Positions 5,772 to 50,944 of a stretch of 64,000 nt of DNA are shown one piece after another. Source of the DNA: Escherichia coli. GTDB taxonomy: Bacteria > Pseudomonadota > Gammaproteobacteria > Enterobacterales > Enterobacteriaceae. The stretch's first letter is position 1, and each line of letters opens with the position of its first letter. Position numbers and translations under genes: made by a program. The stretch is from assembly GCF_003018255.1 (NCBI RefSeq), contig NZ_CP027440.1, one strand, 5' to 3'. A model generated the notes under the pieces. That model did not search any database and was not told the DNA's origin. It saw nothing but the letters and a program-made list of their open reading frames with translations.

Positions 5772-6473
5772 ATGACAACCTTAAGCTGTAAAGTGACCTC
5801 GGTAGAAGCTATCACGGATACCGTATATCGTGTCCGCATCGTGCCAGACGCGGCCTTTTCTTTTCGTGCTGGTCAGTATTTGATGGTAGTGATGGATGAG
5901 CGCGACAAACGTCCGTTCTCAATGGCTTCGACGCCAGATGAAAAAGGGTTTATCGAGCTGCATATTGGCGCTTCTGAAATCAACCTTTACGCGAAAGCAG
6001 TCATGGACCGCATCCTCAAAGATCATCAAATCGTGGTCGATATTCCCCACGGAGAAGCGTGGCTGCGCGATGATGAAGAGCGTCCGATGATTTTGATTGC
6101 GGGCGGCACCGGGTTCTCTTATGCCCGCTCGATTTTGCTGACAGCGTTGGCGCGTAACCCAAACCGTGATATCACCATTTACTGGGGCGGGCGTGAAGAG
6201 CAGCATCTGTATGATCTCTGCGAGCTTGAGGCGCTTTCGTTGAAGCATCCTGGTCTACAAGTGGTGCCGGTGGTTGAACAACCGGAAGCGGGCTGGCGTG
6301 GGCGTACTGGCACCGTGTTAACGGCGGTATTGCAGGATCATGGTACGCTGGCAGAGCATGATATCTATATTGCCGGACGTTTTGAGATGGCGAAAATTGC
6401 CCGTGACCTGTTTTGCAGCGAGCGTAATGCGCGGGAAGATCGCCTGTTTGGCGATGCGTTTGCATTTATCTGA
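5772..6473 (+). CDS. fre: NAD(P)H-flavin reductase Fre (233 aa)
   Basis: ORF-track frame 5739..6473; start placed at [14 protein letters not shown]; ferredoxin-NADP reductase-like fold motifs (RPFSMAS, GGTGFS). Confidence 0.9.
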
Positions 6474-6480
6474 GATATAA

Positions 6481-6512
6481 AAAACCCGCCCCTGACAGGC
6501 GGGAAGAACGGC
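6481..6512. terminator. GC-rich hairpin (cccgcccctgacaggcggg) flanked by an A-run on the plus strand, which is a T-run on the minus strand; likely terminator for the convergent fadBA transcript and/or fre
   Basis: Inverted repeat read directly; U-tract is on the minus-strand side. Confidence 0.4.
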
Positions 6513-6540
6513 AACTAAAACTTTATACAGTGGCATTTAG

Positions 6541-6660
6541 ATCTATGTCGCATCCGGCATTCGGCACACGCTGCCTGATGCGACGCTGGCGCGTCTTATC
6601 AGGCCTACAATTGGTGCAGGATCGGTAGACCGGATAAGGCGTTCACGCCGCATCTGGCAA
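6541..6660. repeat. REP/BIME-type repetitive extragenic palindromes
   Basis: Motifs gatgcgacgctggcgcgtcttatcaggcctac and ccggataaggcgttcacgccgcatc in inverted orientation between fre and fadA. Confidence 0.6.
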
Positions 6661-6664
6661 GTGG

Positions 6665-7837
<1,173 letters not shown>

Positions 7838-10027
7838 TTAAGCCGTTTTCAGGTCGCCAACCGGACGGGCTGGCTCAACCGGGGGATAGTACGGTTCGTT
7901 ATGACGCGCTTTATTACGCAGACCTTCCGGCACTTCATACAGCGGGCCGAGGTGCTGATATTGTTGTGCCATATCGAGGTATTTTGCGCTACCGAGGGTG
8001 TCCAGCCAGCGGAACGCACCACCGTGGAACGGAGGGAAGCCCAGGCCGTAGACCAGCGCCATATCCGCTTCTGCTGGAGTGGCGATAATGCCTTCTTCCA
8101 GACAGCGCACCACTTCGTTGACCATCGGGATCATCATGCGGGCGATAATCTCTTCTTCGCGGAAATCGCGCTTCGGCTGGCTCACTTCTGCCAGCAGGTC
8201 GTCAACAGCGGCGTCTTCTTCTTTCTTCGGCTTACCTTTGCTGTCTTCTTTATAACGCCAGAAACCGAGGCCGTTCTTCTGACCAAAGCGGTTGGCATCA
8301 AACAGCGCGTCGATGGCATCGCGATAATCTTTCTGCATCCGCTGCGGGAAGCCTGCTGCCATGACAGCCTGGGCATGATGCGCGGTGTCAATGCCCACAA
8401 CGTCCAGCAGATATGCCGGACCCATAGGCCAGCCAAACTGTTTTTCCATCACTTTGTCGATCTTGCGGAAATCCGCGCCGTCGCGCAGCAGCTGGCTGAA
8501 ACCGGCGAAATACGGGAACAGCACGCGGTTAACAAAGAAGCCGGGGCAGTCGTTAACCACAATCGGCGTCTTGCCCATCTTGCTCGCCCAGGCGACAACT
8601 TTCGCGATGGTTTCGTCGGAGCTTTTCTCGCCGCGAATAATTTCCACCAACGGCATTCGGTGGACCGGGTTAAAGAAGTGCATCCCGCAGAAGTTTTCCG
8701 GACGCTCCAGCGCGTTGGCCAGTTCGCTGATAGGAATGGTTGAAGTGTTAGACGCCAGCACGGTATCCGGGCGTACTTTTTGTTCGGTTTCTGCCAGTAC
8801 GGCTTTTTTCACTTTCGGGTTTTCAACAACCGCTTCTACCACAATATCCACGCGGTCAAACCCGGCGTAGTCGAGCGTTGGGTGGATTGTAGAGATCACG
8901 CCAGCCAGTTTCAGACCATCGATCTTGCCGCGCTCAAGCTGCTTGTTCAGCAGTTTCGCTGCTTCGGTCATGCCGAGGGTTAACGACTTGTCGTTAATAT
9001 CTTTCATGACAACCGGCACGCCTTTCCACGCAGACTGGTAAGCGATGCCGCCGCCCATAATGCCTGCGCCCAGCACAGCGGCCTGTTTCGGCGTTTCAAC
9101 GTCTTTGGTGAGTTTCTTCGCTTTGCCTTTTACATATTGATCGTTAAGGAATATGCCGACCAGTGCGCGAGCTTCGTTGGTATGCGCCAGCGGGACAAAA
9201 CTTTTGTTTTCCAGGTTTAGGGCTTCTTCACGACCAAAACGGGCCGCAGCTTCAATGGTTTTTACTGCGGTGATGGGGGCCGGATAATGTTTCCCCGCCG
9301 TTTGTGCGACCATCCCTTTAGCGATGGTGAAGCTCATGGTGGCTTCAATCTTGCTCAGTTTTAGCGGTTCCAGCTTCGGCTGACGTTTCGCTTTCCAGTC
9401 GAGGTCGCCGTTAATGGCCTGGCGTAAAATCGCCATCGCCCCTTCAATCAGTTTTTCTGCTTTGACTACGCCATCCACCAGACCGATTTTCAGCGCTTGA
9501 TCCGCGCCGACATCTTTACCGGCGGCAATGATTTCCAGCGCACTGTCAGCGCCCAGCATACGTGGCATACGTACAGAACCGCCAAAGCCCGGCATGATGC
9601 CCAGTTTGGTTTCCGGCAGACCGATGCGCAGATCCGGCGTCGCCAGACGATAATCGGTCGCCAGCACGCATTCGCAGCCACCGCCCAGCGCATAGCCGTT
9701 GACGGCAGCAATGGTCGGCACCGGCAGATCTTCCAGGCGATTAAACACGCTATTGGCAAAATGTAGCCACTGGCTTAACTGTTCTTCAGGAACGAGGAAC
9801 AGGGACAAAAATTCGGTGATATCAGCACCGACGATAAAGGCTGCTTTGTTCGAACGCAGCAGCAGCCCTTTTAGATCTGATTGCTGTTCCAGCACGCCGA
9901 TGGCCTCGCCGAGGCTGGCGACGGTGGCAGTGTCGAGTTTATTAACTGAACCTGGGGCATCAAATACCAGTTCGGCAATGCCATCTTCCAGCCAGTCAAG
10001 GTACAGGGTGTCGCCTTTGTAAAGCAT
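7838..10027 (-). CDS. fadB: Fatty-acid oxidation complex alpha subunit FadB (enoyl-CoA hydratase / 3-hydroxyacyl-CoA dehydrogenase, 729 aa)
   Basis: ORF-track frame 7838..10153 minus; start placed at internal Met ([16 protein letters not shown]) at 10027; crotonase and NAD-binding domains. Confidence 0.93.
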
Positions 10028-42186: not shown

Positions 42187-42245
42187 TTAGTGGCCGGATG
42201 TGCTTAATCCGGCCAACGAAAACCGTATCAACCGAAGTTTCAATT

Positions 42246-43034
42246 TCAGGATACTTCTTGCTCGGCAACCACCAGTTCAACATTCTCTTCACTTAACAAC
42301 TGGCAGAAAGAATTGGGAGGCGGGGCATCAGTAAAAAAAGCCCTGACATTCCGTGCATTGCCAATTGAAACGGCAGCAGACGCGGTAAACTTCGTATGAT
42401 CGGCCACTAACAATGTATTCCGCGCATGTTTAATCATCGTTCTCGCGACTAACGCTTCATTGACATCAAATTCCAGTAGGGTGCCGTCATGTTCAATGGC
42501 ACCTATACTGGTGATTAAATAATCTGCGCGGAAGCCTTCAATAAAATCCACGGCTCCTGGGCCGATAATCCCACCGTTATGAGCGCGTAAAGTGCCTCCC
42601 GGCACCATCACTTCAATATCCTGATTCTTATAAAGAATCTGTGCCACACGCAGGCTATTAGTGATAATGCGTAAATCACGCCGGTTGAGTAATGCCCTGG
42701 CAACGGCTTCTACGGTTGTACCGATGGTGATAAAGACGGTACAGCGTTCGGGAAGGTAATCGGCGACTGCCTCAGCGATCGCCCGTTTCTCGGCGGTGAG
42801 CGAAAGTTCCCGTTGCTCAAAAGCGGTATTCATGACGCTGGAGACGCGCCCGGCCCCTCCATGATGACGGGTGATCAAGCCCTGCTCACTGAGTTTTCGG
42901 ATATCCCGGCGCACGGTTTGCGTTGAAACATCCAGCAGTTGTGCCAGTTCTTCAATATTCATATAACCGCGTTCTGCGATTAGATGAACGAGTTGGTCAT
43001 GGCGTGGATTACCTGTCACTTCGATGATACTCAT
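42246..43034 (-). CDS. DeoR-family transcriptional regulator, YihW/CsqR-like (262 aa)
   Basis: ORF 42246..43034 minus; N-terminal HTH (MNIEELAQLLDVSTQTVRRDIRKL) plus sugar-phosphate-binding domain; adjacent to kinase/aldolase genes. Confidence 0.8.
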   Translation of the reverse strand: MSIIEVTGNPRHDQLVHLIAERGYMNIEELAQLLDVSTQTVRRDIRKLSEQGLITRHHGGAGRVSSVMNTAFEQRELSLTAEKRAIAEAVADYLPERCTVFITIGTTVEAVARALLNRRDLRIITNSLRVAQILYKNQDIEVMVPGGTLRAHNGGIIGPGAVDFIEGFRADYLITSIGAIEHDGTLLEFDVNEALVARTMIKHARNTLLVADHTKFTASAAVSIGNARNVRAFFTDAPPPNSFCQLLSEENVELVVAEQEVS

Positions 43035-43073
43035 GAATACTCCCTTGCCCCTCCTCGGTAGATGTTTACCATT

Positions 43074-43970
43074 TTACGCATAAAGTGACAAAAATGATTC
43101 GGTTTGCTCACGATTAGGAATGCCGGCCCGACCGCCAGGCTGGGTACATTTCATCGCGGCAACCGCACTGGCAAAACGAATAGCCTCTTTTGTTGGCATT
43201 TTTTCTGCCAACGCTACCGCGAGTGCGCCGTGAAAAACATCGCCTGCTCCAGTGGTATCAACCACATTGACAGAAAATGCCTCCTGTTGACACAAATGAC
43301 CATCTTCAATCCACAACGATCCTTCAGAACCCAGCGTAACATACACTTTACCTGCTGTTTGTGTCGTTGCCTGGAACAAACCTTCTTCAGGTGACTGCAG
43401 GCCAGTCATGCGTTTCAGCCCAGGTGTTGAGAACACGGCGTGATCGGCAAGCGCGACAAGTGGAGAAATATCCTGCGGTGTCATATCGGCGTCTAAAAGC
43501 GTTGTCACACCCGCAAGGCGCGCTAGCGAGAATGCTTTTTCAGTACCGCTATGCCAGCGAACATCGGCCAGAATCAGATCATAACGAGAGAAATCGATCG
43601 CTTCTAACCATTCGGCATCAGTACCGAGATCAGGACTTGGATAATTAACGATAATCCGTTCGCCATGCTGATCAACGAGGATCGCTGATTGCGACGAACG
43701 GGCGTTAGGATATCGGCGGCAAAATGCGGTATTGACGCCCCAACCCTCAAGTTCTGCAAGTAAGGTATTTCCACAACTGTCATCGCCGACGCGACCGATG
43801 AAATCAACCTCCACGCCAAGCTTTGCGATTGCAACAGCGGCTGTTGCTGCCGGGCCGCCACCAATCTCAAGATAATGATTTGCCTGATATTTCCCGCCGC
43901 CCTCCGGCAGAGTGGGCAAAGAATAAATCCTGTCCTGAACTGTGATACCCACGCATGCAATTCTGGTCAT
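43074..43970 (-). CDS. PfkB-family sugar kinase, YihV (sulfofructose kinase)-like
   Basis: ORF-track frame 43074..44021 minus; start probably at [13 protein letters not shown] (43970); PfkB signature [14 protein letters not shown]. Confidence 0.8.
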
Positions 43971-44142
43971 ATTTGTCTTGTCCTGTTTAATTTTGTCGTC
44001 TTTGGTCAATTTAAATGACACAAATGATCAAATTAGTGATGCGTGTCGTGTTTTTGAACATAAATTACAAATATGCTCAAAAACAGACGAAAACGAATTT
44101 TCAATTGTCATTATTTTGTCAATGTCAGACAGGAGAGTATTC
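43971..44142. promoter_or_regulatory. Divergent promoter/operator region between the kinase gene and the reductase-aldolase operon
   Basis: AT-rich intergenic DNA with reiterated tttgtc-containing motifs (ttttgtcgtcttt, ttttgtcaatgtc, atttgtcttgtcc), a pattern expected for DeoR-type operators; RBS aggagag before 44143. Confidence 0.4.
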
Positions 44143-45021
44143 ATGGCAACCATTGCATTTCTCGGGCTGGGGCAGATGGGTAGCCCAATGGCTAACAATC
44201 TATTGCAAAAAGGGCATTCATTGCAGGTATTTGATGTCAATGCACAGGCCGTCGATGTGCTAGTTACGCAGGGGGCCACTGCGGCACAAACCCCAGCGGA
44301 AGCAGCAGCAGGCGCTGAATTTATCATCACTATGCTTCCCAATGGTGACATTGTTCGACAGGTTCTGTTGGGGGAAAAAGGCGTCTGTGAGGCTGTTTCA
44401 TCTGACGCGTTATTGATTGATATGTCGACTATTCATCCCTTACAGACCGATGCATTAATACGGGAGTTACAAGAAAAAGGCATCAGTATGATGGACGCTC
44501 CCGTGGGCAGAACGTCCGTGAATGCGATTGATGGCACATTGCTGATTTTAGCGGGTGGCACTGATGAGCAGATTGCACGTGCACGCCCGATTCTCATGTG
44601 CATGGGTAATGAACTGGTCGAGGCTGGCGGCCCAGGAATGGGGATCCGCGTGAAGCTAATTAACAACTATATGAGCATTGCGCTTAATGCGCTGTCCTCC
44701 GAGGCCGCTGTGTTATGTGAGTCACTGGGATTAAATCTTGATGTCGCAATTAAGGTGATGAGTGGTACGGCAGCAGGGAAAGGACATTTTACGACCACCT
44801 GGCCTGGCAAAGTGCTGAAAGGCGATCTTTCACCCGCCTTCATGGTGGATCTGGCGTTGAAAGATCTGCGTATTGCAGTTGACGTCGCTCGGGAGACGGG
44901 GGCACCGCTCAATATGGGGATTGCAGCAGAAAGTTATTACGCCGCAGCAAGTCAAGACGGCAAAGGGCGGCAGGATTGGAGTGCCCTGCTAAATCAGGTT
45001 CGCCAGCAGGCTGGTCTTTAA
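44143..45021 (+). CDS. NAD(P)-dependent beta-hydroxyacid dehydrogenase family reductase, YihU (sulfolactaldehyde reductase)-like (292 aa)
   Basis: ORF-track frame 43942..45021; start placed at ATG 44143 after RBS; Rossmann motif [13 protein letters not shown]. Confidence 0.8.
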
Positions 45022-45045
45022 TTTTATCTATTAACAGGAGTTTCT

Positions 45046-45933
45046 ATGTCATCCCACTTCACCCCATTTACGCTGAAAGATATCTCCCGCCCAGGTGGTG
45101 GATTCGCCATGTTAGCTGTCGATCAGCGTGAGGCCATGCGCCTGATGTTTGCGGCAGCAGGGCAGCCAAAACCCATCGCCGACAGTGTACTCACCGATTT
45201 TAAAGTTGCCGCGACCCGAATCCTTTCTCCTTATGCTTCTGCCGTTCTGGCGGATAAACAATTTTGTCTTGAACAAATAGTCGAGCAGGGCGCTGTGGCT
45301 AATTCTTGCGGCCTGATTGTCGCTGCCGATCTTTTTATCCCAGGTAATGGCATCCCGGTTGATAGCGTTGAAATAGATATGTCCGTCGACCCGCATAAAG
45401 CCCGTGAAATGGGGGCTAAGGCAATGAAATTACTTGTACTCTGGCGTGAAGATGAACCCGCAGAGGAACGTCTGGCAATGGTTGATAAATTTGTTCGTCG
45501 CTGCCGTAGTGCCGGGCTGGTTAGCATTATTGAACCTGTGGTGCGTCCACCTCGTCGCGGTTGGGACTTTGATCGTGAAAGCGCCATTGTTGCCGCCGCC
45601 GCAGAGCTTGGTGGAACAGAGGCTGATCTTTACAAAGCCGAGATGCCATTAGGGGGCAAAGGCGATGAAAAAACCTTACTTGCCGCCTGTCAGCAACTTA
45701 ACGATCAGATGAAGATGCCGTGGGTAATTCTTTCTTCTGGCGTTGATGCCGATATTTTTGGCCGTGCAGTAAGTATTGCCATGAAAGGTGGTGCGTCGGG
45801 CTTCCTGGCTGGACGAGCGGTATGGGCGTCGGTTGTTGGTGCACAAGATCCACAAACCATGCTGCGCGATGTCTCCGTTCCACGCTTGCAACGGCTGGCT
45901 GAAATTGTCGATGAAGGTATCGCGCAACGCTAA
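45046..45933 (+). CDS. Class I aldolase of the LacD/YihT (sulfofructose-phosphate aldolase) family (295 aa)
   Basis: ORF 45046..45933; [13 protein letters not shown] motif region characteristic of YihT/LacD-like aldolases. Confidence 0.8.
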
Positions 45934-45965
45934 TCCCCTATGGATATCGATTCTGGAGAATAACA

Positions 45966-46976
45966 ATGGATAAAATTACCCAGGTTTTATTTTCAGATAT
46001 TGGGAAAGTCACCACTCAATATGTTGAAGTACCACACCAGCAACTTAAACCGCACGAAGTACGGATTGCGCCCGTGTTCTACGGGATATGCGGTTCGGAT
46101 CTGCATGTTCTGAAAGGCGGTCATCCGTTTGCCAAGCCGCCTGTCGTCCCCGGTCATGAAATTGCAGCGCGCGTTACGGAAGTGGGCAGCGACGTTAAAA
46201 ATGTACAGCCGGGCGATCATGTTGTGGTCGATCCCATCATGGCTTGCATGGAATGCCGAGCCTGCAAAGCAGGACGTTTTAATCTTTGTGAACCACCGCA
46301 GGTTGCTGGTTTTCGCGCACCGGGCTTTGCTCGCTCACAACACATTGTTCCTGCGCGTAATTGCCATGTCGCACCAGCCTCTTTACCGCTAAAAGTGTTG
46401 GCCTTTGCCGAACCGGCGGCTTGTGCTCGTCACTGCGTTAACCGAATGCCGAAAGCTTCTCTGGAAAGCGTACTGGTGATTGGTGCCGGAACGATAGGCT
46501 TATCCATCGTGCAGGCACTGCGCATTATGGGGGCAGGTAAGATTACCGTGATTGAACCTGACGCTGCCAAACGCGCGCTGGCGTTAAAGCTGGGCGCAGC
46601 AGAAGTTTGGGCACCAGGTGAGCTGGCCGCAGATGTGAGATTTACGGGGGCGATTGATGTCGTTGCAGCGCAGGCCACGCTTAACGATGCATGTACCCGT
46701 GTATATGCCGGAGGCACCGTCGTGTGCATGGGCGTACCAAGTGGGCCGCGTGAAATACCATTACCGATGATGCAACGTTTCGAGCGTGACTTGCTCAACT
46801 CTGGCATGTACATCCCTGAAGATTTCGATGCTGTTATCGAATGGCTGGCGGATGGGCGGTTTGATACCAGTGAACTGGTTACCGATTTATTTGCCATTGA
46901 GGATGCAGCGGCGGCATTCGAACGCGCGCAGCAAAATGACTCCATAAAGGTCATGCTGCAATTTGCGCCGGAATGA
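45966..46976 (+). CDS. Zinc-dependent medium-chain alcohol/polyol dehydrogenase (sorbitol/threonine dehydrogenase-like, 336 aa)
   Basis: ORF 45966..46976; catalytic Zn ligands (GICGSDLH, GHE) and structural Zn cysteines (CMECRACKAGRFNLC); Rossmann motif GAGTIG. Confidence 0.8.
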   Translation: MDKITQVLFSDIGKVTTQYVEVPHQQLKPHEVRIAPVFYGICGSDLHVLKGGHPFAKPPVVPGHEIAARVTEVGSDVKNVQPGDHVVVDPIMACMECRACKAGRFNLCEPPQVAGFRAPGFARSQHIVPARNCHVAPASLPLKVLAFAEPAACARHCVNRMPKASLESVLVIGAGTIGLSIVQALRIMGAGKITVIEPDAAKRALALKLGAAEVWAPGELAADVRFTGAIDVVAAQATLNDACTRVYAGGTVVCMGVPSGPREIPLPMMQRFERDLLNSGMYIPEDFDAVIEWLADGRFDTSELVTDLFAIEDAAAAFERAQQNDSIKVMLQFAPE

Positions 46977-47045
46977 TTTTCTAAATCTCTGTCTGGCGCT
47001 GCGTCACGTCAGCGCCACCCTACAACAATTAAAAAGGACACTGCG

Positions 47046-48479
47046 ATGAGTCAAATCACCAGTCCTGCAACTTATTCAATTAGTCGGCCACAGGACGTAA
47101 TTGATATTGTTAATAAGAACTCTGCAATCAACACCAGTATCGGCGTTATTTTTATTGCTTTGGGCGGCATATTGATTGATGCCTACCAGGTGGCGATGGT
47201 GGGGTTTGGTAATAAATACATTGCCGCTCAATTCGGCATTTCTCCGGGTCTTGCTGCGACCGTCAATGCGTCAGTATTAATCGCCGCGTTAATTGGCGGT
47301 TTATTAGCGAACCGAGTAATAAACCGCTTTGGGCAAAAGCGGGCATTTATTATTGGCATGGGGCTGTGCACCATCGGTGCTGCAGCGGTAGCTATTGCTC
47401 CCAGTATCTGGTGGGTGCTGGTGTGCCGCGTCATCATGGGCTTTGGTTTAGGCATCGACTTCCCTTTGGCAACTAATGCCGTGGCAGAGCTTCGTGGTTC
47501 AACGTCGAAGAAAACCGGAACGTCGGTCAACCTCTGGCAAATGGCCTGGTATGTTTCGACAACCGTTGTTTATTTGGTGCTTTTGCCGCTGCTTCTGTCG
47601 GGTATCGCTGAAGAACAATTGTGGCGTTACGGAATATTCATCGGAGCTATTTTTGCAGTCATCTTCATGATTTTGCGTTACTTCTTTATTGGTGAATCCG
47701 CAATGTGGGCCGCACGCGTTGGGCGTTACCAGGAAGCGTGCGACATTCTGGGAAAACGTTATGGTGTTCAGGCTCGCGTTGCGGCATCGGGTACAACAGA
47801 AGCGAAATTCTCGGAAAAAGCAGAGAATAAATACAGTGGTGGATATGGCATCTTATTTAATGATCGTTACCGCAAACGCACCATTCTTGGCTGTGTCGTG
47901 GCAACCATGCAGGCGTGGCAATATAACGCCGTAGGTGTTTATCTTCCTCTTACGTTGGCGGGAATAATAAGTGGCGGGCTTACTGGCGCGTTGACCGGTT
48001 CTGCCGTCGTGAATGCCCTTTGTGGGGTGACAGGTGGGATGATCGGCTCGTTTATTCTCCAACGACTGGGTACTCGCCGACAGTCGATGTATGGATTTGC
48101 TGTTGTGACCTTAGCATTGCTGTCGTTAGGCGCACTGGCAACGACTAATCCTTGGCTGTCTTTAGGGTTATTGGGATCAATTATTTTCTTCCATTCAGCG
48201 GGTCCTGGTGGGCTGGGCATGACCATTGCCACACTCTCTTATCCTCCCGCTATTCGCCCTACTGGGGTCGGATTTGCCCGCGCTATTATGCGCACAGGGG
48301 CAATTGCAGGACTCATTTTCTGGCCGATGCTGTGGGGTGCGTTGAAAACTGAAGCGTTTTACTGGTTGGCAATCGTGCCATTCCTGGGATTCCTAACCTG
48401 TGTATTGATTAATTGGGAACCACTGGGTGCAAATGTTGATGCTGAGGACGCAGAGGTTCTGGCTGAATTGAAGAAATAA
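47046..48479 (+). CDS. MFS transporter (477 aa)
   Basis: ORF 47046..48479; about 12 TM helices; RBS aaggac. Confidence 0.75.
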   Translation: MSQITSPATYSISRPQDVIDIVNKNSAINTSIGVIFIALGGILIDAYQVAMVGFGNKYIAAQFGISPGLAATVNASVLIAALIGGLLANRVINRFGQKRAFIIGMGLCTIGAAAVAIAPSIWWVLVCRVIMGFGLGIDFPLATNAVAELRGSTSKKTGTSVNLWQMAWYVSTTVVYLVLLPLLLSGIAEEQLWRYGIFIGAIFAVIFMILRYFFIGESAMWAARVGRYQEACDILGKRYGVQARVAASGTTEAKFSEKAENKYSGGYGILFNDRYRKRTILGCVVATMQAWQYNAVGVYLPLTLAGIISGGLTGALTGSAVVNALCGVTGGMIGSFILQRLGTRRQSMYGFAVVTLALLSLGALATTNPWLSLGLLGSIIFFHSAGPGGLGMTIATLSYPPAIRPTGVGFARAIMRTGAIAGLIFWPMLWGALKTEAFYWLAIVPFLGFLTCVLINWEPLGANVDAEDAEVLAELKK

Positions 48480-48480
48480 T

Positions 48481-48514
48481 TTAATGCGCATCGGCTTAAG
48501 CCGATGCGCATTAA
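48481..48514. repeat. Perfect 34-bp palindrome between the two transporter genes
   Basis: ttaatgcgcatcggcttaagccgatgcgcattaa read directly; no downstream T-tract. Confidence 0.6.
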
Positions 48515-48577
48515 TTCAAACTGCCCACGTTTAGTGGTTCGTATCCCAGATTTCTCGCCTACCAGGAGAGGAAAATT

Positions 48578-49927
48578 ATGTCTGAAAAGTTACCCGCACC
48601 GCGTGAAGGGCTTTCCGGTAAAGCCATGAGACGTGTCGTTATGGGCAGTTTCGCAGGCGCGTTAATGGAATGGTATGACTTCTTTATTTTTGGCACGGCA
48701 GCAGGACTGGTATTTGCACCGCTGTTTTATCCAGACAGCGATCCTTTTATAGGTCTTATAGCTTCCTTTGCGACCTTTGGTGTCGGTTTTCTGACTCGTC
48801 CTTTAGGGGGCATCGTCTTTGGTCATTTTGGCGATAAAATCGGGCGAAAAATAACACTTATCTGGACGCTGGCTATTGTCGGTTGCTCCACATTTTTGAT
48901 TGGTTTTATTCCGACGTATCAGGAAATTGGCATTTGGGCACCGCTTGTATTAATGGTGCTGCGTTTGATTCAGGGCTTTGGTCTTGGTGGCGAGTACGGT
49001 GGAGCGGCATTGATGACCATAGAATCAGCGCCCGAATCCCGACGCGGATTTTTAGGTTCACTCCCGCAAACGGCTGCGTCTGTGGGTATTATGCTGGCAA
49101 CCGGTATTTTTGCTCTCTGTAACCATTTTCTTACTTCGGAGCAGTTTCTCTCCTGGGGATGGCGCATTCCGTTTTGGCTTTCTGCGGTGATGTTGATCGT
49201 TGGGCTGTTTATCCGCCTACATACCGAAGAAACGCTGGATTTTCAAAAGCAAAAAACGACGAATAATAAAGAAAAGTCCGTTCCTCCGTTGATTGAATTA
49301 TTCAAAAAACATCCACGAAATATTTTATTGGCACTGGGTGCGAGGCTGGCGGAAAGTGTCTCCTCTAATATTATTAATGCCTTTGGTATTGTCTATATTT
49401 CCAGCCAATTAGCATTGTCGCGAGATATTCCCCTGACGGGTATGTTGATTGCCTCGGCGATCGGTATTTTCAGTTGTCCATTGGTTGGATGGTTATCAGA
49501 TCGTATAGGTCAAAAAAGTCTGTATTTGTCGGGAGCAGGATTTTGTGTCCTGTTCGCGTTTCCTTTCTTCTTATTATTGGATAGCAAAAGTACGCTCATC
49601 ATCTGGTGCAGTATGATCCTCGGCTACAACTTAGGTCCGACGATGATGTTTGCCGTGCAGCCAACACTTTTCACCCGCATGTTCGGTACCAAAGTACGAT
49701 ATACCGGCCTTTCTTTTGCTTATCAATTTTCCGCGATTCTTGGCGGACTAAGCCCCCTTATCGCCTCAAGTTTGCTGGCGCTAGGGGGAGGAAAACCGTG
49801 GTATGTCGCTCTGTTTTTATTTGCTGTCTCAGTTCTTTCCTTTGTTTGCGTCTGGCTGATTGAGCCGACCGATGAACAAGAAACCGCTTCTTACCGCTAC
49901 ATCAGGGAACAATCTCATGAAAACTGA
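48578..49927 (+). CDS. MFS transporter of the metabolite:H+ symporter (MHS, ProP/KgtP-like) type (449 aa)
   Basis: ORF 48578..49927; MHS-like N-terminal motifs (GALMEWYDFFIFG, GHFGDKIGRK). Confidence 0.75.
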   Translation: MSEKLPAPREGLSGKAMRRVVMGSFAGALMEWYDFFIFGTAAGLVFAPLFYPDSDPFIGLIASFATFGVGFLTRPLGGIVFGHFGDKIGRKITLIWTLAIVGCSTFLIGFIPTYQEIGIWAPLVLMVLRLIQGFGLGGEYGGAALMTIESAPESRRGFLGSLPQTAASVGIMLATGIFALCNHFLTSEQFLSWGWRIPFWLSAVMLIVGLFIRLHTEETLDFQKQKTTNNKEKSVPPLIELFKKHPRNILLALGARLAESVSSNIINAFGIVYISSQLALSRDIPLTGMLIASAIGIFSCPLVGWLSDRIGQKSLYLSGAGFCVLFAFPFFLLLDSKSTLIIWCSMILGYNLGPTMMFAVQPTLFTRMFGTKVRYTGLSFAYQFSAILGGLSPLIASSLLALGGGKPWYVALFLFAVSVLSFVCVWLIEPTDEQETASYRYIREQSHEN

Positions 49928-50804
49928 ACGAAAAAACGAGCATTACCTGGCGCTACAACAGGCGTTTGACGCGCCATGGCCTGGGCCTGTAGGAGAGTTA
50001 GTGATGCTGGAAAAAGGCAATATTCACCTGCAGATTTATCCGCATGATGGTGCCAGGATAACCTCGTTAAAGGCATTTGGTTCTGAAGTATTACGCCAAT
50101 GGCAGCCGCAGCGCAGAGCTTTTCAGTATGGCTGTTTCCCAATGGTGCCGTGGGCAGGGCGACTGGGGAATGCGACGCTGAATGCTGGTGGGCAATGTTA
50201 TTCTTTACCCGCCAATAAACCACCACATGCGTTGCATGGTATGGCTTGTTACTCAACGTGGGAAATCATCGACAAAACAGCAGATTCCCTGACTTTACGT
50301 ATGCCCCTGGCTTCACCGTGGCCCTGGCAAGGGGAAGTGATTCAGACTTTTTTGCTGGAGAACGATGCGCTGGTTTTGCAACTGGAAGTCCATTCATATG
50401 CCGATACATTCCCGGCCTCCGCAGGCTGGCATCCGTGGTTTGCGAAAAAGCTGACTCCGCAAAATACAGAATCGTTGCAGGTGCTTTTTGATGCGGACTG
50501 GCAAGAAGAAGCGGGTAGTGATGAACTGCCAACTGGAAATCGTATCTCTCCTCAAGTCGGTCCCTGGGATGACTGTTTTGGTTTTTATGACGGGGTGAAG
50601 GTTAAGTTACTGTGGCCTGGTAAACTCGCGATGACCATGACCTCTTCTGCAAACAGTCTGGTGGTATTTGATAAACAGCCCGATGCCACCTGTATTAACC
50701 CGCTGACTCAGGCACCTAACGCAATAAATCTAACGCCGGAATTTGTGACACCAGATAAGCCGCTGGTCATCGAAACTCGTTGGCAATTTACACCTGAATC
50801 TTAA
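49917..50804 (+). CDS. Aldose 1-epimerase (mutarotase)-family protein, YihR-like
   Basis: ORF-track frame 49860..50804; start placed at ATG 49917 (MKTERKNE) after an RBS, overlapping the upstream stop by 11 nt. Confidence 0.7.
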   Translation: MKTERKNEHYLALQQAFDAPWPGPVGELVMLEKGNIHLQIYPHDGARITSLKAFGSEVLRQWQPQRRAFQYGCFPMVPWAGRLGNATLNAGGQCYSLPANKPPHALHGMACYSTWEIIDKTADSLTLRMPLASPWPWQGEVIQTFLLENDALVLQLEVHSYADTFPASAGWHPWFAKKLTPQNTESLQVLFDADWQEEAGSDELPTGNRISPQVGPWDDCFGFYDGVKVKLLWPGKLAMTMTSSANSLVVFDKQPDATCINPLTQAPNAINLTPEFVTPDKPLVIETRWQFTPES

Positions 50805-50811
50805 CCATTCA

Positions 50812-50850
50812 TCTATTGCGAAAAAGACAGTGAAATTACTCTGCTTTTTC
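50812..50850 (+). terminator. Terminator hairpin after the cassette operon
   Basis: ttgcgaaaaagacagtgaaattactctgctttttcgcaa inverted repeat. Confidence 0.6.
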
Positions 50851-50944
50851 GCAATCAGCATCACAAGATTACCCTTATTGCCACATAGCCAAACCCATCC
50901 TTTCCCGCTACAGTTAATTTCTTGTGGCGCGAAAGGAGGCAAAA

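Follow-up and report, generated by a model that had tools for sequence, protein, structure and literature searches.

The window analysed here, a stretch of 64,000 nucleotides from Escherichia coli (NCBI RefSeq assembly GCF_003018255.1, contig NZ_CP027440.1), covers an ordinary part of the E. coli chromosome between ubiB and fdhD, and it contains on the plus strand (45966..46976) a gene for a zinc-dependent medium-chain dehydrogenase/reductase (MDR). We propose, with a probability of about one half, that this protein is an NAD+-dependent 6-deoxy-6-sulfohexitol 2-dehydrogenase yielding sulfofructose, and thereby the committed first enzyme of a variant cassette for sulfoglycolysis of the Embden-Meyerhof-Parnas type (sulfo-EMP). 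The gene belongs to a set of eight intact genes (8.6 kb) coding for a DeoR-family regulator, a kinase, a reductase, an aldolase, the MDR, two transporters of the major facilitator superfamily (MFS1 and MFS2) and an epimerase-like protein. By comparative analysis, this locus is a xenologous eight-gene cassette conserved across phyla with an MDR as its proposed entry gene, a description that is new here. We infer the substrate of the MDR, the direction of its reaction, the roles of the transporters and the co-transcription of the genes from sequence data.

The MDR gene is preceded by a Shine-Dalgarno sequence (GGAG) 10 nt 5' of its ATG, the strand opposite to it is crowded with stop codons, and its product is labelled 'zinc-dependent alcohol dehydrogenase' in RefSeq (WP_000357981.1). 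The first-pass annotation, a reading of the DNA letters and their open reading frames (ORFs), had described an enzyme of the sorbitol/threonine dehydrogenase type with both zinc ligand sets complete, and on both counts we agree. The catalytic ligands (C42, H64, E65, E149) and those of the structural-zinc lobe (C94, C97, C100, C108) are all present and are invariant in 86 full-length orthologues. The protein contains the ADH_N (GroES-like, PF08240, E=2.9e-26) and ADH_zinc_N (Rossmann, PF00107, E=2.9e-17) domains of Pfam, as well as the CGSD.H motif of polyol dehydrogenases, whose S44 and H47 are invariant in the same orthologues. The GxGxxG motif at 173-178, with G173, G175 and G178 invariant, and E197, the acidic residue that ends strand beta-2 and is 99% conserved, fit the use of NAD+. 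The fold agrees with the domains and the motif: the AlphaFold2 model (built on a 43-sequence alignment; mean pLDDT 96.2, pTM 0.94) is closest to solved structures with TM scores of 0.89-0.92, at just 25-28% identity, namely the Sinorhizobium meliloti protein 4EJ6, IdnD, the whitefly, human and sheep sorbitol dehydrogenases, L-arabinitol 4-dehydrogenase, RspB and YdjJ. The best sequence match in the PDB is RspB (E=2e-37).

None of the NCBIfam equivalog models considered accepts the protein. The best-scoring one, YdjJ, gives 165 bits against a cutoff of 376; the L-threonine 3-dehydrogenase models NF003808 and TIGR00692 give 139 against 380 and 120 against 458, respectively, and IolM (149 against 450), IdnD (125 against 469) and GatD (113 against 550) are likewise below their cutoffs. 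Since the YdjJ, IolM, threonine dehydrogenase and IdnD models all score far under cutoff, the MDR forms a distinct subfamily. Judged from its motifs and predicted fold, it is a genuine zinc MDR of the polyol/aldonate secondary-alcohol dehydrogenase branch, outside every characterised equivalog. Three basic residues, R117, R160 and R271, are invariant in the family and lacking in its near outgroups. R117 lies in the loop following the structural-zinc lobe and R271 within the 266-272 helix; the matching segments of horse-liver alcohol dehydrogenase line the substrate cleft, and R117 and R271 are only candidates for sulfonate ligands. The MDR is also the most constrained protein of the cassette. 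Synonymous divergence was saturated in the comparisons of cassette genes (dS >1.5 or undefined), and relative dN values alone were therefore used: among the eight genes that of the MDR is lowest (0.037 in the comparison with Citrobacter, the other genes having 0.05-0.17), and its values between genera are 0.037-0.057.

The features of the locus are as follows.

42236..50880: segment replaced relative to K-12; in junction alignments the flank identity stops at about 42235 and resumes at about 50881
42246..43034, minus strand: DeoR-family regulator, YihW-like, 71% identical to CsqR
43074..43970, minus strand: PfkB sugar kinase of the YihV type (predicted sulfofructose kinase), 67% identical to K-12 YihV
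43971..44142: divergent control region between the kinase gene and yihU, with a motif in common with the K-12 spacer
44143..45021, plus strand: YihU, predicted sulfolactaldehyde 3-reductase, 292 aa, 73% identical to K-12 YihU
45046..45933, plus strand: class I aldolase of the YihT type (predicted sulfofructose-1-phosphate aldolase), 67% identical to K-12 YihT
45966..46976, plus strand: zinc-dependent MDR dehydrogenase, 336 aa, an uninterrupted ORF from ATG start to stop
47046..48479, plus strand: MFS1 transporter, sugar-porter/AAHS-like, 477 aa, probable exporter of 2,3-dihydroxypropane-1-sulfonate (DHPS)
48481..48514: perfect palindrome of 34 nt between the MFS1 and MFS2 genes, sequence TTAATGCGCATCGGCTTAAGCCGATGCGCATTAA
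48578..49927, plus strand: MFS2 transporter of the MHS/ShiA-like organic-anion:H+ symporter family, 449 aa, probable substrate importer
49917..50804, plus strand: aldose-1-epimerase-fold protein, 295 aa, 27% identical to YihR, overlapping MFS2 by 11 nt

As the first-pass annotation had it, the MDR gene is embedded between the aldolase gene on one side and those of MFS1 and MFS2 on the other. From yihU to the epimerase-like gene all genes lie on one strand with gaps of 24, 32, 69, 98 and -11 nt, the 32-nt gap being that between the aldolase and MDR genes, and no canonical terminator was found between yihU and MFS1; the spacing and this terminator-free stretch fit a single operon. A promoter scan returned fewer sites than shuffled controls and was uninformative. 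In its GC composition the cassette does not stand out. In the mechanical ORF list, yihU appears as a 359-aa ORF with a GTG start (43942-45021) that runs into the divergent kinase gene; the start given by RefSeq, at 44143, is preferred because it matches K-12 YihU. The spacer between the kinase gene and yihU shares with K-12 a motif of about 30 nt, ATAAATTACAAATA(T/C)G(C/A)TCAAAAACAGAC (window 43971-44142; L002, 15573-15739), which has been kept though the flanking genes are just about 70% identical. This motif is likely a YihW/CsqR operator or a core promoter.

The site itself is that at which K-12 has its sulfo-EMP genes, ompL-yihOPQRSTUVW (Denger et al. 2014, cited after PMC12890257; for structures of the enzymes see PMC8006165). 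In K-12, the stretch between yihN and yihX holds ompL-yihOPQRSTU on one strand and, on the opposite one, yihVW. The two cassettes have in common, besides this location, two transporters and a protein of the epimerase fold, as well as a homologous kinase, aldolase, reductase and DeoR regulator with identical substrate-contact residues and a homologous motif resembling an operator between yihU and yihV. They differ in that K-12 has YihS, YihQ, OmpL and transporters of the glycoside-pentoside-hexuronide (GPH) family, all absent from the window cassette, whereas the latter has the MDR and two unrelated MFS transporters, is inverted in orientation and is reported not to respond to sulfoquinovose by induction. 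Within the window, YihS (PF07221) had no tblastn match at E<=1 and YihQ no significant one (best E=0.49, 21% identity). The gene order yihU-yihT-yihS of K-12 is mirrored by yihU-yihT-MDR, and the MDR thus literally occupies the isomerase slot, as had been supposed from the window alone.

With the four shared proteins only 67% (aldolase, kinase), 71% (regulator) and 73% (reductase) identical to their K-12 counterparts, the comparison identifies the locus as a xenologous replacement cassette, neither a truncation nor a decayed sulfo-EMP operon. Of 5426 complete E. coli genomes, 1327 (~24%) have the MDR gene, in one copy each, and in 1249 of these carriers its identity is 99% or more; the yihQ-yihS segment of K-12 is found at >=80% coverage in 3886 genomes of this set. 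From these counts the two forms behave as alternative alleles at one locus. Two of the 1327 MDR copies are on records labelled plasmid.

The same locus has been named the 'short yih cassette (yihTUVW)' by Kaznadzey et al. 2025 (PMC12608037), who described it as a truncated four-gene form. They reported it in Nissle 1917 and many pathogenic strains, with enrichment among pathogens, inverted relative to the long form, and found no homologues of yihO, P, Q, R and S elsewhere in the genomes that carry it (PMC12608037). The main text of that paper makes no mention of an MDR or an epimerase-like gene in the short cassette and speaks of MFS transporters solely for YihO and YihP of K-12, and its supplement (Nissle RNA-seq) has no MDR entry (PMC12608037). 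In a 2026 review of sulfoquinovose catabolism, every sulfo-EMP variant listed is isomerase-initiated (PMC12890257). Our literature search returned no sulfo-EMP variant with an MDR, no 'SQ reductase' (SQ, sulfoquinovose) and no mention of the RefSeq accessions.

The comparison was extended to other bacteria, where orthologues of the MDR (55-95% identical) were found across Enterobacterales (Citrobacter, Phytobacter, Mixta, Erwinia, Enterobacter, Trabulsiella, Edaphovirga, Leminorella, Budvicia, Tenebrionibacter and Pantoea), Vibrio, Alphaproteobacteria (Rhodopseudomonas, Roseospira, Pleomorphomonas and Telmatospirillum) and Streptomyces. We scanned 24 orthologous loci with the window proteins, the K-12 Yih proteins and one class II aldolase. 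The MDR, MFS1 and MFS2 occur together in all 24 loci, each at 56-99% identity, and the epimerase-like gene in 23 of the 24, lacking solely in Streptomyces marincola. The other components are far more variable: the kinase falls from 97% to 27% identity and the regulator to 23%, the reductase is either of the YihU type (56-99%) or a distant 3-hydroxyisobutyrate dehydrogenase (HIBADH) homologue (28-30%), and the aldolase is of class I (68-99%) or class II. No homologue of YihS, YihQ, YihO, YihP or OmpL was detected within 10 kb on either side of the 24 loci (for YihS at E<=1e-10); the SqvD family (PF02952) is not among the genes listed for the loci, SqvD itself not having been used as a query. 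That the MDR is constant while functionally equivalent analogues take the place of its partners strongly supports it as an integral step of the pathway.

Even the actinobacterial homologues of the MDR, at 43-45% identity, are still found in clusters of a PfkB kinase, a class I aldolase, an MDR and an MFS transporter, so that an MDR, a PfkB kinase, an aldolase of the sulfofructose-1-phosphate (SFP) type and MFS2 stand together in 27 of 27 loci from Gammaproteobacteria, Alphaproteobacteria and Actinobacteria. The first-pass annotation had suggested that a polyol dehydrogenase takes the place of a missing YihS-type isomerase. The idea of a replacement is strengthened by this linkage of MDR, kinase and aldolase, none of the 27 loci having YihS or YihQ; what does not stand is the notion of an isomerase missing from a degraded operon, as the whole K-12 cassette has been exchanged for a xenologous one. 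MFS1 is not present in the actinobacterial clusters L029 and L031, and the sole transporter carried over in such minimal clusters is the MFS2 orthologue (56-58% identity). For this reason MFS2 is the likely importer. MFS2 scores 407 bits with TIGR00883 and 410 bits with the ShiA model, each under the cutoff. MFS1 is likely the DHPS exporter of the reductive versions of the cassette.

In L031 (Streptomyces, GCA_014205315.1, 2658-11486), a TauE-family permease (PF01925) and an aldehyde dehydrogenase of the GabD type (succinate-semialdehyde dehydrogenase family) stand beside the PfkB kinase, the aldolase, the MDR and MFS2; the cluster also encodes an enolase-superfamily (MR_MLE) protein and has IS elements just downstream. 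We take the TauE family to comprise sulfite and organosulfonate exporters, and the gene set is as expected for a version forming sulfolactate. A general pairing of the MDR with a sulfolactaldehyde (SLA) reductase that consumes NADH was considered and rejected as a rule, given that L031 has an aldehyde dehydrogenase as its partner. In L020 (Citrobacter sp. NCU1), a second DeoR regulator and an extra YihU-type SLA reductase, scoring 531 bits with NF012005, lie (6127-8495) directly upstream of a rearranged cassette with the order regulator-MDR-MFS1-MFS2-epimerase-kinase-class II aldolase; these extra genes suggest a remnant or a fusion of two cassette types.

The nature of the substrate is indicated by the enzymes downstream of the MDR. 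Their sulfonate and substrate contacts were defined by Sharma et al. as K27-N109-R138, D13, S95 and D244 in the sulfofructose kinase, K193, S226, S227, R253 and A26 in the SFP aldolase, and R123, N174 and S178 in the SLA reductase (PMC8006165). The window kinase retains D13, K27, S95, N109, R138 and D244, and its orthologues of at least 59% identity retain the K27-N109-R138 triad and D244. The window aldolase retains K193, S226, S227, R253 and A26, a set kept in the 19 other class I copies of the related loci and invariant in 21 of 21 class I copies overall, including ones at 51-56% identity. YihU of the window retains R123, K171, N174 and S178, and passes the NCBIfam equivalog NF012005 with 578 bits against a cutoff of 348. 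Where the aldolase is of class II, the best match is HpSqiA (8Q58; 365 bits, E=1.7e-108), followed by YaSqiA (8Q57; 352 bits) and AgaY (246 bits), and the first two are characterised SFP aldolases. We consider it likely that the substrate of the cassette is sulfonated.

On this basis a complete scheme can be proposed. An anionic 6-deoxy-6-sulfohexitol (sulfo-glucitol or sulfo-mannitol) would be imported via the MHS-type MFS2 or, as an alternative supply, would arise intracellularly when an unlinked reductase acts on a sulfo-aldose. The MDR would oxidise its C2 to give 6-deoxy-6-sulfofructose, which the YihV-type kinase would convert into SFP. The YihT-type aldolase, or the class II SqiA-type enzyme in some genera, would then cleave SFP into dihydroxyacetone phosphate and SLA; YihU would reduce SLA to DHPS, which would exit via MFS1. 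Oxidation at C2 is the simplest role for the MDR because the kinase would bind sulfofructose, for which there is no other reported source in the cassette or the genome; likewise, as the MDR belongs to the polyol/aldonate branch, its product would most simply be sulfofructose. If a housekeeping aldose reductase made the sulfohexitol from sulfoquinovose, the molecular function of the MDR would be the same.

The proposed reaction has counterparts among known dehydrogenases. Sorbitol dehydrogenase (L-iditol 2-dehydrogenase, EC 1.1.1.14) has the same fold (TM 0.91 to human 1PL6) and CGSD.H motif, and turns a hexitol into a 2-ketose by oxidising its C2 hydroxyl, as proposed for the MDR. It is, however, just 26-27% identical to the window protein, which keeps the structural-zinc lobe and has R117, R160 and R271 of its own; the position of R298 in the human enzyme is presumably a Met in the MDR, from a hand alignment to the human sequence. 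For an anionic substrate, a direct parallel is the L-gulonate dehydrogenase HiGulD (HI0053), which we take to be a zinc-type MDR, RspB being of the same type; the carbon that HiGulD oxidises is the penultimate one. HiGulD converts the anionic hexonate L-gulonate into D-fructuronate (PMC5788505), a fructo-configured ketose that is anionic at C6 and is the carboxylate analogue of sulfofructose. RspB and IdnD are also zinc MDRs of the branch to which the window MDR belongs, at ~25-28% identity. Compared with these enzymes, the acid group in the substrate of the window MDR would be a sulfonate and would lie one carbon further out, and the product would go to a kinase and an aldolase, whereas that of the HiGulD type goes to UxuB and UxuA.

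The general logic of the cassette is also found in the ydj cluster of E. coli. According to work of the Raushel laboratory, this cluster comprises the zinc dehydrogenases YdjJ and YdjL, the PfkB kinase YdjH, the class II aldolase YdjI, the reductase YdjG, MFS transporters and the DeoR regulator YdjF, and its substrates are reportedly long-chain uronates, not sulfonates. It thus shares with the window cassette a dehydrogenase, a 1-kinase, an aldolase and an aldehyde reductase acting on a sugar with an anionic terminus. YdjJ (5VM2) and YdjI (6OFU) are among the structural or sequence matches of the cassette proteins, the entry 5VM2 (ECK1772) being, we assume, ydjJ.

Several observations weigh against our proposal. 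Growth of Nissle 1917 on sulfoquinovose was reported to be about that of K-12, in spite of the lack of YihS (PMC12608037); if real, it favours sulfoquinovose itself as the input. The literature search gave no 6-sulfohexitol as a natural product. The sulfonate triad is not kept in kinases of 28-45% identity from Pantoea-like, alphaproteobacterial and actinobacterial cassettes, nor are the sulfonate residues of YihU in the distant HIBADH-type reductases (28-30%) of the same groups. Finally, an epimerase-fold gene, present in 23 of 24 orthologous cassettes, is normally a sign of a reducing sugar in cyclic form and not of an acyclic polyol. The K27-N109-R138 triad was tried as a universal mark of cassette kinases and rejected, the distant kinases being without it. 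The best PDB match of the Rhodopseudomonas palustris cassette kinase is still the sulfofructose kinase.

The growth data and the epimerase-like gene speak for a rival explanation that we consider unlikely: the substrate would be a sulfosugar of the aldose type (sulfoquinovose or sulforhamnose, or else an epimer), and the MDR alone would act as a redox isomerase giving sulfofructose. Bound NAD+ would take the hydride from the C2 hydroxyl and return it to C1 without net cofactor turnover, and the epimerase-fold protein would supply the anomer or the open chain. The K-12 cassette would then have undergone a one-for-one swap, the MDR standing for the isomerase, the epimerase-like protein for the mutarotase and two MFS for two GPH transporters. 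Sulfoquinovose also releases the YihW of Nissle 1917 from DNA, if only partly, this regulator binding the yihU/V region more weakly in electrophoretic mobility shift assays (PMC12608037). However, sulfoquinovose does not induce yihV, yihT, yihW or yihU of the short cassette (PMC12608037), even if the weak binding of YihW at 37 C means that the lack of induction need not be a lack of expression. MFS2 moreover belongs to the MHS organic-anion family, not to a sugar or GPH type. We know of no precedent for an MDR acting as an aldose-ketose isomerase, and a cofactor-recycling conversion of sulfoquinovose or an epimer into sulfofructose, with transfer of the hydride from C2 to C1 via bound NAD, seems to us decidedly improbable. 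If true, it would be a mechanism of isomerisation new to the MDR superfamily, and would account for the replacement of YihS one for one as well as for the reported growth of Nissle 1917 on sulfoquinovose.

The epimerase-like protein itself weakens the inference in either direction. Its histidine motifs, HALHGM and GWHPWF, are invariant across the cassettes. The Glu of the mutarotase 'EP' motif (AVEPM in YihR), whose catalytic role we presume from work on GalM, is an Asn in the clade of E. coli, Citrobacter, Enterobacter, Mixta, Erwinia and Trabulsiella, and also in Vibrio and one alphaproteobacterial metagenome-assembled genome; Leminorella, Budvicia, Edaphovirga, Pantoea and most Alphaproteobacteria have the Glu. 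Possibly the protein of E. coli is not a canonical mutarotase. In addition, its gene is the fastest-evolving of the cassette and is dispensable in the actinobacterial versions, which lack it. The Asn site, the fast evolution and this absence together are why little can be drawn from the gene for or against a reducing sugar as substrate.

It is about as unlikely that the cassette is not specific for sulfonates at all, the MDR acting on a carboxylated or neutral polyol, a hexonate or a 6-deoxyhexitol and the kinase and aldolase on the matching 2-ketose, as in a ydj-like pathway. Such a pathway would be in line with YdjJ as the best NCBIfam model for the MDR, with the distant alphaproteobacterial and actinobacterial kinases and HIBADH-type reductases that lack the sulfonate residues of YihV and YihU, and with the absence of induction by sulfoquinovose (PMC12608037). 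It is at odds with the retention of every sulfonate contact in the kinase, aldolase and reductase of E. coli, with a YihU above its equivalog cutoff, with the invariance of the contacts in the class I aldolases and the SqiA-like character of their class II replacements, and with the TauE permease of L031. Sulfoquinovose, moreover, alters the binding of YihW to DNA in vitro (PMC12608037).

Still less probable is a role of the MDR at the end of the pathway, as a dehydrogenase of a C3 sulfonate (DHPS or SLA) resembling HpsP, with sulfofructose coming from elsewhere, for instance by import. HpsP, an (S)-DHPS dehydrogenase of the MDR family (PDB 8WWD), does occur in both the fold and the sequence matches; sulfofructose could enter through MFS2, and the epimerase-fold protein could act on its anomers. 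However, HpsP is no closer than other MDRs (25-26% identity, rank 14 of the fold matches); no HpsN, HpsO, desulfonating or other DHPS-pathway gene is among the genes listed at the loci; SLA is already handled by YihU; and the MDR is retained in L031, where the GabD-type enzyme replaces the reductase and DHPS would not form. Finally, that the cassette is an evolutionary remnant out of catabolism in E. coli, with an MDR that has no current role there, fits the absent transcriptional response to sulfoquinovose and the weak binding of YihW (PMC12608037) as well as the loss of the predicted catalytic Glu of the epimerase in the E. coli clade, and is nonetheless very improbable for eight intact genes of which the MDR shows 99% identity or more across 1249 genomes and has the lowest dN between genera, in a cassette maintained across phyla.

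The breakdown of sulfoquinovose is a major process in the sulfur cycle and in the interaction of diet and microbiota (PMC12890257). The cassette keeps the trunk from sulfofructose to DHPS and would start with a dehydrogenase, and it is also present in soil, marine and phototrophic bacteria. If the MDR is indeed a sulfohexitol dehydrogenase, there is either an overlooked natural sulfonated polyol or a 'polyol-pathway' bypass for sulfoquinovose. This would reassign a locus now described as a non-functional truncated cassette, and would alter the way in which genomes and metagenomes are assessed for their capacity for sulfoglycolysis.

A second strain-variable patch follows fabY in the window (53894-55633). 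It contains an alpha/beta hydrolase gene (53894-54877, minus strand; RefSeq start 54802) and genes for a 103-aa hypothetical protein and a NadS-family protein, the latter pair at 55031-55633 on the plus strand. These genes are not annotated in the matching region of K-12, which runs from fabY to yiiE. The 34-nt palindrome between MFS1 and MFS2 has no T-run 3' of it on the plus strand. It was not found in other genera and is kept in Escherichia sp. MOD1-EC7003 (L007) with a compensatory change of an A/T to a C/G pair; it may form a hairpin that processes or stabilises the mRNA, or a partial attenuator.

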